From NCBI GenBank assembly GCA_016840085.1, contig JAEOTA010000042.1, forward strand, positions 1 through 37,236: 37,236 bases of DNA, in the 5' to 3' direction. The notes below the pieces were generated by a model, which saw only the letters and a program-made list of their open reading frames with translations, was not told the origin of the DNA and ran no database searches. Both the position numbers and the translations under genes were made by a program. Below are positions 17,590-35,963 of the stretch, one piece after another (positions within the stretch are counted from its first letter, which is position 1; each line of letters begins with the position of its first letter). The stretch is from Promethearchaeota archaeon. GTDB lineage: Archaea > Asgardarchaeota > Lokiarchaeia > Sigyniarchaeales > SOKP01.

Positions 17590-18024
17590 TTAATATTTTA
17601 TATCTTTGGTTTCTATTTTTTTAAGAACAGATTCCATTTCTTTAAATGCTTTTCTAATTTTATGGAAATAATAACCTAATTTATAACCTTTTTTACAATT
17701 CGTAAAGAGCATAAAATCGTTATCAGCATCTCCTACTACAATGATCGTATATCCTCTATTACCACTGATGACTATATCCTTCAATTCCCCTTGTTCTAAT
17801 CCTTGACTAATTTTCTCTCCAAGCGAGATTAAGGTCGCTGGACTCGCGCTATAAATATCCCAAGTAACATCAGCTGTTTCAGAACTTGCAATTCTTAACC
17901 CTGTTTTAGACACGATAGCAGTACCCTCTAAATCAGTAGAACTCTCTAGTAGTTCTAACGATCGCATTAATTCATCTAAAATATCTTGACTTATTTCAAT
18001 TTCAGAGTCTTTAGCTTGTTCCAA
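17590..18024 (-). CDS. Roadblock/LC7 (MglB-like) protein
   Basis: DLEGTAIVSKTGLRIAS, SA..ATL.SLGEK....L..G.L...VISG.RGY; TTG start after GAGGTG. Confidence 0.9.
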   Translation of the reverse strand: MEQAKDSEIEISQDILDELMRSLELLESSTDLEGTAIVSKTGLRIASSETADVTWDIYSASPATLISLGEKISQGLEQGELKDIVISGNRGYTIIVVGDADNDFMLFTNCKKGYKLGYYFHKIRKAFKEMESVLKKIETKDIKY

Positions 18025-18064: not shown

Positions 18065-19483
18065 TTAAATGTTTTTTACATGAAAACTTCTCAATTCCTT
18101 TAAAAACACTGGATCTCCTTTCTTGACTACAATATCTTTAATTTCAATTCCCACGATCACAGCTCCTTTAGTACCAAAAGTATTTAAAACTGTTGTAAAG
18201 GGAGGTTCTAATTTCTTTCCTATAATTTTTTTAGCCCCAATGGCACTTTGAGCTAAACCTGTGCAAATTATTCCTTGAGGATGTTCTGGATTTTTAATGA
18301 AGCCCTTTTTAATCTTATATCTATAAAATAATGGAGGTTTATCATAGATTTTTAATAGATCTGCAGATCCTAAGATCCTTAAAGTGGTTGGTGGTAAATC
18401 TAGTCGACTAATAAGCAAAATAGCTTTTTTTTTTCTTATTAAAACTTTATCTTTTAATAGAATTATAGCTTTAAATCCTCTATCTTTATTAGATACTGAT
18501 TTTTGAATTCTTCTTCCATCTATTTCATCGAATGGATAAATATTGCCTGTCATAGTCAACATTCCTATGGTAATGTGAACTTGAGTGCCAAAACGAGTGT
18601 TTGGTTTAAATAAACTATTATTATTCACTTCTACACCAATTATATTGCAATATTCAAAAGCCTTTGGATTATTTGTAGCATAACAACCTCGAAATACTTT
18701 CTTAACATCTATCCCCTTAATGTTAATTCCTACTCGATCACCTGCCTTTGCGGAATCAACATTTTGATAAAAAATTTGAATACTTTTAACTCTTCCTGAA
18801 GATTTAATAGGTAAAATTTCTATGTTTTGATTTAAGCTTAATGTTCCGCTTAATATTGTTCCAGTTAAGACCGTTCCAATACCCTTAATTGGAAAATGGT
18901 GATCAACAGGTATTATAAGATCACCATCAATAATCCGTTTTATTTCTAAAGAATTTACTTTTTCTAAGATTCCTTTTTTTAATTCTTCAAATCCAACCTT
19001 GTTTTTAGCTGAAACTGCATATATTGGGACATCTGAACCAAAGGAAGTTGAATCAAAAAATTCTCTTGTTTTTTTTATTTCTTCTTCAATATTTTTTTTA
19101 AAAAGATCGATTTTATTAAGAATAACTATAATATCTTTAATTCTGAGTGATTCAACCATAATTAGATGTTCTCCAGTTTGAACTTGAGACCCTTTATTTA
19201 TATCTATGACAATTAAAGCAATATCAATAATCTCAACTGAAGACGCACTAATTTTTATTAAATCAGCATGACCGGGGCCATCTACCAAGGTAACGAGATA
19301 TTTATCAAGTAAAAAACTGGTAAATCCTAAATCAATAGTAATACCCCTTTCTTTACTTTGTGGATGGGCATCGAGACCTGCTGTTGAGATGATTTCTGAT
19401 AATACTTCAGCTATAGCTGTTTTTCCGGAGTCTATATGACCAAATAAACCGATATGCACAGGGATTTTTTTTTTAATTTGCAT
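18065..19483 (-). CDS. selB: Selenocysteine-specific elongation factor (archaeal/eEFSec type)
   Basis: GHIDSGKT, QSKERGITIDLGF, DGPGHA, QTGEH, NKID, DHHFPIKG.GTVLTGT; short C-terminal domain (FGTKG) and no bacterial winged-helix extension; near tRNA-Sec and SepSecS. Confidence 0.93.
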   Translation of the reverse strand: MQIKKKIPVHIGLFGHIDSGKTAIAEVLSEIISTAGLDAHPQSKERGITIDLGFTSFLLDKYLVTLVDGPGHADLIKISASSVEIIDIALIVIDINKGSQVQTGEHLIMVESLRIKDIIVILNKIDLFKKNIEEEIKKTREFFDSTSFGSDVPIYAVSAKNKVGFEELKKGILEKVNSLEIKRIIDGDLIIPVDHHFPIKGIGTVLTGTILSGTLSLNQNIEILPIKSSGRVKSIQIFYQNVDSAKAGDRVGINIKGIDVKKVFRGCYATNNPKAFEYCNIIGVEVNNNSLFKPNTRFGTQVHITIGMLTMTGNIYPFDEIDGRRIQKSVSNKDRGFKAIILLKDKVLIRKKKAILLISRLDLPPTTLRILGSADLLKIYDKPPLFYRYKIKKGFIKNPEHPQGIICTGLAQSAIGAKKIIGKKLEPPFTTVLNTFGTKGAVIVGIEIKDIVVKKGDPVFLKELRSFHVKNI

Positions 19484-22910: not shown

Positions 22911-24128
22911 ATGAAGTACAGAAAAATGGGTTCACTTGATGGGGAGGTTTCTGCTCTCGGTTTTGGAGCAATGAGATTGCCTATGAACCAAATGATGCAA
23001 GTTAATGAAGAAGAAGCAATTAAAATGATTCGCTACGCAATTGACAATGGAGTAAATTATGTTGATACTGCTTATCCTTATCATAATGGTGAAAGCGAGG
23101 TTATAGTTGGAAAAGCCTTAAAAGAGGGATATCGGGAAAAAGTATACCTTGCAACAAAATCGCCAGTATGGATGGTTAAAAAGGCAGAAGATTTTGATAA
23201 ATTTCTTAATGAACAAATTGAACGATTACAAACTAAACCAGATATTTATTTATTTCATGGATTGAATAGGAATCGACTTGAGAAAATTAAAAATCTAAAT
23301 TTGATTGAAAAAATGGAAGAAGCTAAAGCTAAGGGATTAATAAAATACATCGGCTTTTCTTTTCATGATAATTTTGAAGTTTTTAAAGAGATTATCGATT
23401 TCTATAATTGGGATTGCTGTCAGATTCAATATAATTATCTTGATATTGAATATCAAGCAGGAACCAAAGGTGTACAATATGCTGCCAGTAAGGGTATTGC
23501 TTTGATAATAATGGAACCAATTCGAGGTGGAAAGTTAGCTATTCCTAAACAAGTATTGAATAGAAAACCTGAAATTAAAGAAGTTCTTAATAGGTCAAAT
23601 GTGAAAAGAAGTATGCCTGATTGGGCTCTACAATTCGTTTGGAACCATCCAGAAGTTTCAATAGTATTAAGTGGAATGAGCTCTATGCAACAAGTTATAG
23701 AAAATGTAGAATCCGCAAATAATTCGGGAATTAAATCCCTTTCAAAGGAAGAATTACAAACACTCTCGGCATTGCGTGAAGCATATAAAAAATATACAAT
23801 TGTACCTTGTACGAGCTGCGGTTATTGCCTACCATGCCCAAATGGGGTTGCTATTCCTGGAATTCTTAGATTTGTAAATGAAATCTACTACTGGGGTGAT
23901 AGAGGGAGAATGAGAATTGCCTTTTTTTATAATAGAATGGCAAAGACTGAAGAAGACTTTGAAAATAGGAAAGCACAGGGAGAGGAAGTTGAAGGGGCAG
24001 CTGCTTTATGCATTCAATGTGGAGAGTGCCTTGAAAAATGTCCGCAACAAATTGATATTCCCTCTTTTATGGAAAAAGCTAGTGCCTTATTTGAAGAGGG
24101 TAAAAAAGTTTCAGAAGTACTTGATTAA
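22911..24128 (+). CDS. Aldo/keto reductase with C-terminal 4Fe-4S dicluster domain
   Basis: VSALGFGAMRLP, GVNYVDTAYPYH.G.SE, IGFSFHD, MEPIRGG, CTSCGYCLPCP, CIQCGECLEKCPQ. Confidence 0.95.
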   Translation: MKYRKMGSLDGEVSALGFGAMRLPMNQMMQVNEEEAIKMIRYAIDNGVNYVDTAYPYHNGESEVIVGKALKEGYREKVYLATKSPVWMVKKAEDFDKFLNEQIERLQTKPDIYLFHGLNRNRLEKIKNLNLIEKMEEAKAKGLIKYIGFSFHDNFEVFKEIIDFYNWDCCQIQYNYLDIEYQAGTKGVQYAASKGIALIIMEPIRGGKLAIPKQVLNRKPEIKEVLNRSNVKRSMPDWALQFVWNHPEVSIVLSGMSSMQQVIENVESANNSGIKSLSKEELQTLSALREAYKKYTIVPCTSCGYCLPCPNGVAIPGILRFVNEIYYWGDRGRMRIAFFYNRMAKTEEDFENRKAQGEEVEGAAALCIQCGECLEKCPQQIDIPSFMEKASALFEEGKKVSEVLD

Positions 24129-24373
24129 TAATTATTTTAATTTTTTAGATAATATACAAAATAAGTTATATGAAGATAAAGGGAATTATAATTTATATTT
24201 AGGAGCAAAGTTATTTAATAAAATACTTGAGAATTATAGTAATAGCTTGGAAAAAAAAAGAGTTAGACTACATACGCGTGATATATGAATATCTAGAATT
24301 TTTAAAATAAAACCACAAATTTCATTTATAAATATAAATAGATTTCAATTAATAGATATTAATTTAATAATTT

Positions 24374-24530
24374 GGCCCTTGACGGTCGGAATTGTTTTGA
24401 GATCATATCGATCTCCAACGATAAGTGGTCTCTGACGCTGGGCTTCAAACCCAGTTATCCTGCGGAGGGATAGGAGTTCGATAATGGTTAGATATTGTCT
24501 GATCTTCGAAATTCTCCTCGAGGGCCGCCA
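24374..24530 (+). tRNA. selC: tRNA-Sec (UCA), 9/4 fold, with two BHB introns (24391-24424 and 24483-24512)
   Basis: Acceptor GGCCCTTGA/TCGAGGGCC (9 bp) + G73 + CCA; anticodon arm GCTGGG-CT TCA AA-CCCAGT; long variable arm; 4-bp T-stem GGAG/CTCC; D-arm GTCGGAG-TGGT-CTCTGAC after splicing. Confidence 0.93.
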
Positions 24531-24862
24531 ATATTATTTTCTATTCCAAAAAATTTTACCCTTTTTTTCCACCTGATAAATTTTACCTGATTCTTGTAAA
24601 TGTATGATCCATAGAAAAGAATTACAGTTCGGAAATCTTGCACCATTATCCCCATCAATCATAAAAAGATTCTCAAAATTGCCAATTCGATGAATCGAAA
24701 TTGTGTTGTCCCTCTTAATGGGATGTTTATATTAATAATTTTGCTAATAAATACAAATTGCATCTGTAAAAAATTAACCAAAGAATTATTTGATAAAATG
24801 CTTTATTTATTTTATTACTAAGTATGAATATTAATTGAAATAAGAAGTTATAGTGATATTGA

Positions 24863-26230
24863 GTGGTTGATTTTAGCAAAATAAGCGATTTTTTTAATAA
24901 TTCTGCAATACCTCAAAATATGCTAAATAGAGGGCAATTAGTACTCAATAATTTCATAAAACCAATAAAAACATTGTTTGAACAAAGGAATGTTCCAAAA
25001 AAACCATGGAGTGATGATCAAATCGAATTTTTACTAAAAACACTTTCGAATATGGATACTGATAAAGACAGTGATGCGGCAAGAGTGGGAGAAAGAGAGG
25101 CAAGAATAGTTTCGAAATTACATCTACAAACTTCCGCAGGGTTTTGCCATGGAATAGGGAGAAGTGGGTTTTTAACGGCTCCACAACCTAAAGCACCTGG
25201 AGGATCAATAATGTACGAAATTTCTAATTATTTAGCAAGAGATATATTAAGAAATTGCGGATTACCAAACATAAAAGAAGCAATTATTGTTCCATTATGC
25301 ACAGGTATGTCTTTATCCTTATCCTTGGGCGCTTTAAGACCAGAATGGAAAAATAATGGTTCAAATATGAGGAGAACTGTTTTGGTTCCTCAAATTGACC
25401 ATAAATCGCTTTTAAAATCAATTGAACTAATGGGACTTAGAACTAAAATTATTAAAGGTAAAATTTTTGGAGATGCTGTTAGAATTCCATTTGAAGACAT
25501 CGAAGCTAATCTTGATAAAGATTGTTATGCTATTGTATCAATAACAAGTTTTTTTCCACCTAGGGAACCGGATAATATCAAAGAAATCAGCAAATTAGCA
25601 AAAGAAAAGGATTTGGTTCATATAGTCATCAATGCTTATGGTGTTCAAAGCCCTGAATGGATGAAATTGATTCGTTCTGCAATAGATGCGGGCAGAATTG
25701 ATGCGATAATTCAGTCAACTGATAAAAATTTTCTTACTCCTGTTGGTGGTGCCTTGATTGCTTCTCCTTTCAAGGAAAATATTACTAAAATCAGTCAAGC
25801 TTACGCGGGGAGAGCTTCGGCTACTCCAGTTGTAAATTTTTTAATTTCTATGCTCTCTATTGGAATTGATGGTTATCATAAAATGATTGAAGAACAAAAA
25901 CAAAATCGAAAACTTTTGGAAGAAAAAATAACTGAGGTTGCCCAAAAGATTAATGAGAGAGTACTTAAAATTTACAATCCTGTAGCAGTAGCATTATCTT
26001 TGGAAAATTTAGAAGAAGAACAATTGTTTGCTCTTGGTGGAGCATTATATAATTTACGAGTTACTGGTCCTCGAGTCTATAATCCCAAAGAAAAAGCGTT
26101 TGGTACATGTTGTGAAAATTATCATACTCCATACATAGTAATGAATGCTGCAATAGGCTCAAAAACAAAAGATATTACTTCTGCTGTAGAAAGATTTGAA
26201 AAAGCTTATTTTCAAATTACTCAAAAGTAG
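24863..26230 (+). CDS. spcS: O-phosphoseryl-tRNA(Sec) selenium transferase (SepSecS)
   Basis: MDTD, GEREAR, HGIGRSG.L.APQPKAPG.S, P..TGM, DHKS, NAYG, QSTDKNFL.PVGG, Y.GRAS, V.G.R, AAIG. Confidence 0.96.
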   Translation: MVDFSKISDFFNNSAIPQNMLNRGQLVLNNFIKPIKTLFEQRNVPKKPWSDDQIEFLLKTLSNMDTDKDSDAARVGEREARIVSKLHLQTSAGFCHGIGRSGFLTAPQPKAPGGSIMYEISNYLARDILRNCGLPNIKEAIIVPLCTGMSLSLSLGALRPEWKNNGSNMRRTVLVPQIDHKSLLKSIELMGLRTKIIKGKIFGDAVRIPFEDIEANLDKDCYAIVSITSFFPPREPDNIKEISKLAKEKDLVHIVINAYGVQSPEWMKLIRSAIDAGRIDAIIQSTDKNFLTPVGGALIASPFKENITKISQAYAGRASATPVVNFLISMLSIGIDGYHKMIEEQKQNRKLLEEKITEVAQKINERVLKIYNPVAVALSLENLEEEQLFALGGALYNLRVTGPRVYNPKEKAFGTCCENYHTPYIVMNAAIGSKTKDITSAVERFEKAYFQITQK

Positions 26231-33666: not shown

Positions 33667-34320
33667 ATGGTAAAAGAAAATTTTAACTCTAATATAGATT
33701 CCAATATTGAATCTGAATTGTATGCTCTAATTCATACTATACTTAACGCGAATGAAAAATTTGAAGAAGGTGTTATTAATAATACATATTTTAGAAAAAC
33801 GGTGAAAAATGCTATAAATGAATTACTTAAATTTAATTTCATTCTGGATGAAAAAAAAATCAATCTTTCTCATCTTCTTAAAAAAATGAATTTTGCTAAG
33901 CAATATTATAAAGCAATTGGTATTATCAATAGACTTTCGTCTCTGGAATTCTCTAAGAGCAGTTCTGAAAATGATATAAGTGATCAACCTCCAATTTCAA
34001 AAGAAATGAGCTCAACAGTATTAGAACTCCCAGGTATTACTTTAGAAATAACTTCTTCTTTTATAACTTTAATGGACGCTTTAAAATTAAATGGATTCAA
34101 AGAAAGAGAATTAATAGAAGAATTATTTAGAGATTTAGTCAATAATATGGAGAGATTTCCTGGTATAGATGATCTTATCGTAAAAATTAAAGCAATCTAT
34201 AATCGTTCATTAAGTAATATGCTCAATGAAGATGATCTTAATAAGGTTAAAGGAATAATTGTAGATGAGATATATCAACTCTTTAAAGAATTTCAATATA
34301 AGCTAAATCCAAAACAATAA
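33667..34320 (+). CDS. vps28: Vps28-like ESCRT-I subunit
   Basis: N-terminal ELYALI.TI.....F..G.I....F and C-terminal EITSSFITLMDALKL...L..DL...M resemble both Vps28 domains. Confidence 0.8.
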   Translation: MVKENFNSNIDSNIESELYALIHTILNANEKFEEGVINNTYFRKTVKNAINELLKFNFILDEKKINLSHLLKKMNFAKQYYKAIGIINRLSSLEFSKSSSENDISDQPPISKEMSSTVLELPGITLEITSSFITLMDALKLNGFKERELIEELFRDLVNNMERFPGIDDLIVKIKAIYNRSLSNMLNEDDLNKVKGIIVDEIYQLFKEFQYKLNPKQ

Positions 34321-35862: not shown

Positions 35863-35963
35863 GCAGACATAGCCTAGCCTGGTACGGCGCTGGCTTGGAG
35901 CGGAAATATTCCCAGAAAGCCAGTGTGTGAATGCACCCGAGGGTTCAAATCCCTCTGTCTGCG
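35863..35963 (+). tRNA. tRNA-Ser (GGA) with canonical 17-nt intron (35901-35917)
   Basis: Acceptor GCAGACA/TGTCTGC + G73; CTGGC-TT GGA G|A-GCCAG; BHB helix TTGG/CCAG; long variable arm; GAGGG TTCAAAT CCCTC. Confidence 0.93.

Follow-up and report, generated by a model that had tools for sequence, protein, structure and literature searches.

A tRNA-Sec gene with two bulge-helix-bulge introns in a Promethearchaeota genome, and signs that homing endonucleases may have helped to spread it

Introns have already been described in the tRNA-Sec genes of Asgard archaea. A tRNA-Sec of Lokiarchaeota with a 31-nt intron in the T-loop has been published (Mariotti 2016, PMC4989117; Santesmasses 2017, PMC5330540), and two tRNA-Sec genes of Atabeyarchaeia are catalogued with three curated introns each, the positions of which are not given (Valentin-Alvarado 2024, PMC11291895, Supp. 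Data 4). A recent census of Asgard tRNA introns showed that introns in the D-arm are frequent yet often overlooked in annotation, and reported repeated recent gains and a two-subunit EndA; it found no link to mobile elements and named the arrival of introns the central open problem (bioRxiv 10.64898/2026.10.13.758758). From phages, intronless, collaborative and trans homing are known, including the cases of T4 SegB at the tRNA region and of MobE (review PMC2988022). Our literature search retrieved no account of an intron in the D-arm of tRNA-Sec, nor any paper on free-standing or collaborative homing for archaeal tRNA mini-introns.

The window analyzed here, a 37,236-nt stretch of a Promethearchaeota archaeon genome, contains at 24374-24530 (+) a true tRNA-Sec gene of the Promethearchaeia (Loki) type, composed of three exons and two BHB-type introns. 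Exon 1 (24374..24390, +) comprises the 5' acceptor strand and the first six D-stem bases, and is followed by a 34-nt intron in the 5' strand of the D-stem (24391..24424, +; position 15/16 in our numbering). Exon 2 (24425..24482, +) spans the D-loop, the anticodon arm with the TCA anticodon (24445-24447, +), the variable arm and the T-arm up to position 59, where a 30-nt T-loop intron is located (24483..24512, +; position 59/60). Exon 3 (24513..24530, +) supplies the 3' T-stem, the 3' acceptor strand, G73 and an encoded CCA. The joined exons make 93 nt, which ARAGORN calls tRNA-SeC(tca), and fold into a 9-bp acceptor stem, a 4-bp T-stem, a 7-bp D-stem with a 4-nt D-loop and a long variable arm; the spliced product thus displays the UCA anticodon and G73 by which archaeal tRNA-Sec is recognized, as well as the 9/4 fold. 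The exons are nearly invariant among relatives. In all of this the gene resembles the published Lokiarchaeota tRNA-Sec, with which it shares lineage, 9/4 fold, 7-bp D-stem, 4-nt D-loop and the T-loop intron (PMC4989117, PMC5330540), and the layout of the locus is also close, with SelB upstream on the other strand in both cases, at a distance of about 6 kb in the published one (PMC4989117) and of about 5 kb in the window.

The original prediction for this gene had given the same intron coordinates and lengths, the same 9/4 product with 7-bp D-stem and 4-nt loop, and two splicing helices, GTCG/CGAT for the D intron (bulges GAA and AAG, each split after the second base) and TTCG/CGAA for the T intron (bulges ATA and ATT, split likewise); all these details proved accurate. 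It had also pointed to a reported T-arm intron in Lokiarchaeal tRNA-Sec, with which the two papers agree, and treated the second, D-arm intron as potentially novel. That holds in so far as we found no description of it in tRNA-Sec, yet multi-intron tRNA-Sec genes as such were already catalogued (PMC11291895). Its further remark that the D-arm is the arm recognized by PSTK is too strong for archaea, where the acceptor domain is the main recognition element and the D-arm a minor one (PMC9499178).

At its splice sites, each intron can pair into a 4-bp helix with a 3-nt bulge on either side. The T-stem serves as the outer helix of the T intron, while the D-intron motif has a 3-bp inner helix and an outer helix of at most 2 bp. 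When the introns were shuffled at fixed splice sites, the full helix plus an inner pair arose in 0.8% and 1.2% of trials, so that the joint chance of both shuffled introns forming the motif is about 1e-4. The intron boundaries can be fixed without recourse to the BHB motif, because the joined D and T junctions are identical in intron-free congeners and excision restores a canonical tRNA. A scripted pair count determined that the central D helix retains 4/4 pairs in all 29 distinct genes parsed, even as the interiors of the D introns vary widely in sequence, and in L006/L007 a change on both the exon and the intron side preserves it. The T helix keeps 3-4 of 4 pairs in 26 genes; its pair probability in the precursor is 0.54-0.72. 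According to ViennaRNA, the D-BHB fold lies 6.1 kcal/mol above the minimum, which keeps the mature D-stem (0.8-8.1 kcal/mol above it in relatives); cutting at the D intron would hence seem to call for refolding or for an enzyme of relaxed specificity. On this comparative evidence we regard it as very probable that both introns are spliced by EndA and RtcB. A two-subunit EndA would cut the precursor at the two bulge-helix-bulge motifs, in the case of the D intron after a refolding that opens the D-stem, and RtcB would then ligate the exons. Since the mature tRNA equals that of the intron-free congeners, the introns would add processing steps and no new function.

The source genome is equipped for selenocysteine synthesis. 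We found the SepSecS gene (24863..26230, +; TIGR03531 above cut-off) to start 333 nt downstream of tRNA-Sec, with relatives mostly labelled Promethearchaeota; SelB/EFSec is encoded at 18065..19483 (-), bearing an aSelB_III domain and scoring 235.7 bits with TIGR00475, just under the cut-off of 242. The rest of the set comprises a PSTK-like gene, below the TIGR cut-off, and two SelD genes with TGA; the latter stand in tandem (G000 C78:5990-8158; L107, L108), their frames are uninterrupted and include a single in-frame TGA apiece, and no BHB insert follows the Sec codon of the selD genes in the source genome. As the tRNA-Sec at 24374-24530 is the sole copy in the genome, both introns must come out here, and we infer that it is the single working copy. 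The claim of the original prediction that Sec synthesis depends on double splicing is consequently supported for this genome, but not for the lineage, as most congeners with the gene are intron-free (see below). Many other tRNA genes of the genome carry inserts in the D-arm, anticodon arm or T-loop, which makes non-canonical introns ordinary there; the tRNA-Ser(GGA) of the window (35863-35963, +), for instance, has a 17-nt anticodon-loop intron. As for the splicing enzymes, RtcB and one EndA subunit of the structural type, devoid of the catalytic histidine, are present. Both EndA paralogues occur in 5/5 congeners; the catalytic one was not found in the source assembly (98.8% marker completeness), nor were the two genes that neighbor it in congeners, which suggests that an assembly gap is the likely cause. 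Other genes of the window include a VPS28-like protein (33667-34320, +) and a Roadblock/LC7 protein (17590-18024, -), both of Asgard eukaryotic-signature type, and an eroded metallo-beta-lactamase-fold gene (24531-24862, -), whose positional counterpart in L031 and L040 is intact.

The presence of introns affects how such genes are detected. ARAGORN missed the unspliced gene, which reaches only 25.9 bits against RF01852 (gathering score 47), and called the spliced one. An intron-free congener scores 62.1 bits, D-only alleles 37.9 and 34.1, and a T-only allele 23.0. The suggestion that the introns hide tRNA-Sec is therefore borne out for Rfam, though any intron suffices and the D intron is no special culprit. 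Secmarker recovered the three-intron Atabeyarchaeia genes at 36-47 bits (PMC11291895, Supp. Data 4). With any one intron enough to bring this tRNA-Sec under the Rfam threshold, anyone surveying Asgard bins for the Sec trait should use searches that allow for introns or work at the level of exons.

A comparison of tRNA-Sec loci, of the kind proposed as a check, revealed intron-free, single-intron and double-intron alleles within one genus. Among the 53 genomes of the genus with a tRNA-Sec gene, 31 have no intron and 13 have both D and T introns (12 with the D intron at the position found in the window, one with it one base upstream). D-only alleles of the two D-intron kinds number 3 and 4, respectively, one genome has a T-only allele, and in one the gene is split by a contig break. 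With 31/53 congeners intron-free, double splicing is not a lineage trait. The second family of D-stem introns, positioned one base upstream of that in the window and endowed with a 7-bp inner helix, was seen in L044, L047, L093, L023-L025 and L111. Further arrangements were encountered: tRNA-Sec genes with anticodon-loop and T-loop introns and no D intron (L068, L069, L083, L094, L087), a gene with a D intron and an insert at yet another position, between the variable arm and the T-stem (L189), and a second, short copy of the tRNA-Sec 5' end located 33 nt upstream of an intron-free gene (L062, 985-1020). In several genomes tRNA-Sec coincides with contig breaks, which fall within the gene or at its ends, the copies overlapping (L115/L116 in G065, L120/L121 in G013, L164/L165 in G088, L166/L167 in G090); this suggests mixed alleles or inserts in those populations.

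We found that the inheritance of intron alleles is discordant with that of the flanking genes. On a reference tree of eight flanking proteins, the carriers of the 34-nt D-intron family of the window are rejected as a clade (p-AU 5e-89). With the SepSecS tree alone, the grouping of the window with L031, L032 and L048 was not rejected (p 0.188); SepSecS lies inside the exchanged block, and the flanking genes were used for the AU test for this reason. L048 and L076 have a D intron with exactly the sequence found in the window, with flanking genes 68% identical, and the T introns of L031 and L125 are identical at 76% flank identity, whereas the T intron of the window differs from that of L032 at 6 sites despite 92% flank identity. 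L059 and L113, in turn, have near-identical flanks and different tRNA-Sec alleles. Against L036, the AKR-tRNA-SepSecS block is a mosaic, with 90-95% identity in the flanks and 78-87% inside. Reconstruction on the tree required 12 changes for the D state and 11 for the T state vs. about 21.5 for shuffled labels, so intron states are more clustered than by chance and much of the inheritance is vertical. In the window, these sequence comparisons indicate that the intron-bearing allele most likely reached the locus sideways. Other tRNAs of the same genome offered no convincing match as a source for either intron, and viral contigs contained no match to the tRNA-Sec gene or the D intron. Assembly chimerism was considered as well but is disfavored, as independent assemblies show the same layout (the window and L031; L190 and L193-L195).

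Upstream of tRNA-Sec lies a gene that encodes an aldo-keto reductase (AKR) with an Fe-S domain (22911..24128, +), and the distance between it and tRNA-Sec, 7-14 nt in intron-free sister loci, extends to about 245 nt in the window. This interval holds a remnant of a free-standing LAGLIDADG endonuclease gene (24151..24288, +), consisting of the last 43 codons and the stop, and a putative archaeal promoter block of BRE/TATA-like type (24310..24332, +), proposed from its position and from similar blocks in relatives. The remnant is 65% identical to the C-terminus of a broken gene at the same place in L115 and L050, where the insert is a double-motif LAGLIDADG gene with a match to LAGLIDADG_3 of Pfam. 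The insertion site is fixed, with occupied and empty alleles among relatives. At a number of loci (L032/L185, L187, L182, L181/L186, L190, L191, L193-L195 and L196) a truncated or decayed 5' relic of an intron-free tRNA-Sec persists at the native position, followed by the insert, a second promoter and the intact intron-bearing tRNA-Sec. The window itself has no tRNA relic; L050 retains an orphan native promoter. The L191 relic extends into an intron-free T-arm, from which it follows that both introns came there together with the incoming copy.

In L032, L066, L184 and L190-L196, the sequence before the promoter encodes a different protein, of 340-470 aa, with a conserved HNH-like motif. The model of its C-terminal domain (pLDDT 94) finds HNH nucleases in about three quarters of its structural matches, among them Cap5, Cas9, IscB and McrA, with a best Z of only 5.4. 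The full-length model, which is poor at the motif, gave no Foldseek match, and searches of Pfam (no HNH match), NCBIfam, PDB sequences and the Atlas returned no family. The assignment as HNH-type is thus a provisional one, based on the conserved motif and on weak but consistent fold matches. All 5/5 homologues looked up sit directly upstream of a T-intron tRNA-Sec. In a tally of loci retrieved through SepSecS, a choice that favored neither nucleases nor introns, a nuclease gene or a remnant of one was present in the 2.2 kb upstream of 5/22 T-intron alleles and of 0/44 others (Fisher p = 0.003, which overstates the significance, since the five cases go back to about four events and related genomes are not independent of one another); 17/22 T-intron alleles have no nuclease trace. 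The nuclease genes lie outside any intron or intein. Other genes occur alongside the nucleases. The L032 contig (LJUH01000039.1) belongs to Promethearchaeia though it was binned with Chlamydiae, and its insert includes an AbiEi-type gene; in L192 (322-3685) SMODS and Cap17-like defence genes precede the HNH-type gene and a T-only tRNA-Sec. Free-standing LAGLIDADG genes were also noted within about 1 kb of other tRNAs, some with introns and some without (L202, L206, L208, L209, L212, L214, L217, L223), and L206 ends, in addition, in a truncated tRNA copy. A paralogous HNH-type gene, intact or eroded and accompanied by a 149-aa gene, recurs in about ten genomes at one fixed location that is not a tRNA gene (L228-L237, e.g., L232 at G000 C9:42047-43261).

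Taken together, we consider it reasonably probable that a spliced two-intron tRNA-Sec arrived at this locus by nuclease-driven replacement of an intron-free allele. The donor would be a free-standing homing endonuclease gene, LAGLIDADG here and HNH-type in relatives, followed by a promoter and by a tRNA-Sec that bears an intron. The putative endonuclease would cut a tRNA-Sec gene devoid of introns, and in the repair, with the donor as template, nuclease, promoter and intron-bearing tRNA-Sec would be copied in, the last protected from cutting by its intron; the old tRNA-Sec would persist upstream as a 5' relic in decay, and erosion of the nuclease gene would follow later, as in the window. Of the two introns, that in the T-loop would more plausibly give protection, as a nuclease accompanies T-only alleles in L192 and L196. 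A broader generalization, that two unrelated nuclease families both target intron-free tRNA-Sec, with BHB mini-introns acting as immunity marks that are spread by collaborative homing, is one that we advance tentatively and rate as somewhat short of probable from the sequences at hand. Among the points against homing are the presence of HNH-type paralogues at a non-tRNA locus and the fact that 7/20 other LAGLIDADG relatives also adjoin tRNA genes, some of which are intron-free.

Both introns might instead be old and have been lost precisely many times, the upstream slot being a recombination hot spot in which nucleases and other cargo collect, while alleles move by ordinary homologous recombination and introns protect nothing. 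This account, which we find unlikely though deserving of attention, would agree with the occurrence of double-intron alleles in several genera and deep branches, with the correlation between T-intron distance and flank distance (rho -0.56) and with the unrelated cargo of the slot (permease, AbiEi, LRR protein); likewise, the intron-free L073 shares a T-stem variant with its sister L095, which has both introns, as would be expected after precise loss. However, loss alone cannot yield identical introns in distant hosts beside different ones in close hosts, and it leaves unexplained both the intron-free relics upstream of intron-bearing genes and the restriction of nuclease traces to the front of T-intron alleles. 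Still more doubtful is that the 5' half of tRNA-Sec underwent recombination with an integrating element whose attachment site bore an intron, the nucleases being passengers; such a course has been suggested for the tRNA-Thr of Caldiarchaeum (PMC3293823). The layout of a 5' tRNA fragment, an insert and an intron-richer intact gene is indeed the one reported there, contigs often break at tRNA-Sec, and T-only alleles such as L145 exist that could have received a D intron. Yet no integrase or recombinase was found in any insert examined, although one could have been deleted; the smallest inserts contain a nuclease gene only, no copy was found in viral contigs, and in L191 the two introns arrived jointly. 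That the D insert stays unspliced, retained as an enlarged D-arm or marking a pseudogene, is very improbable: the lowest-energy prediction, with the D-stem kept and the insert looped out, and the lack of catalytic EndA in the assembly would favor it, but the gene is the only tRNA-Sec of a genome that has the whole Sec machinery as well as SelD genes with TGA, its exons are near-invariant, and the BHB helix persists in 29/29 D introns of divergent interior.

If the broader generalization held, collaborative homing would be a real means for non-canonical introns of tRNAs to pass from one archaeal species or genus to another; homing would explain the spread of existing introns and not their first creation. 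The two-intron tRNA-Sec form is itself a modest extension of known biology. The added result is the pattern of mobility, with nucleases and relics, which renders the openly stated question of intron arrival testable, as one genus supplies intron-free, single- and double-intron alleles, displaced relics and intact candidate nucleases.

Compared with the published Lokiarchaeota tRNA-Sec, the gene of the window adds the D-stem intron and belongs to a genus in which introns come and go. The Atabeyarchaeia genes (PMC11291895) are likewise Asgard tRNA-Sec genes with multiple introns, but from another archaeal class, and nothing is reported on their mobility, while the 2026 census (bioRxiv 10.64898/2026.10.13.758758) centered on other classes; here, nuclease genes and relics flank the intron-bearing alleles. 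The setting also differs from phage homing (PMC2988022) by its archaeal chromosome, its presumably protein-spliced BHB mini-introns and the duplicated tRNA relic; what the two have in common is a free-standing endonuclease gene beside its presumed target, which at tRNA-Sec would likewise co-convert flanking DNA together with a nuclease-free intron. The closest archaeal counterpart in layout is the tRNA-Thr of Caldiarchaeum, with the same order of 5' tRNA fragment, insert and intact gene with more introns (Sugahara 2012, PMC3293823). Its insert, however, encodes a putative recombinase, whereas those at tRNA-Sec encode LAGLIDADG or HNH-type nucleases, and, unlike the Caldiarchaeum case, the relic-insert arrangement at tRNA-Sec recurs in several independent lineages.
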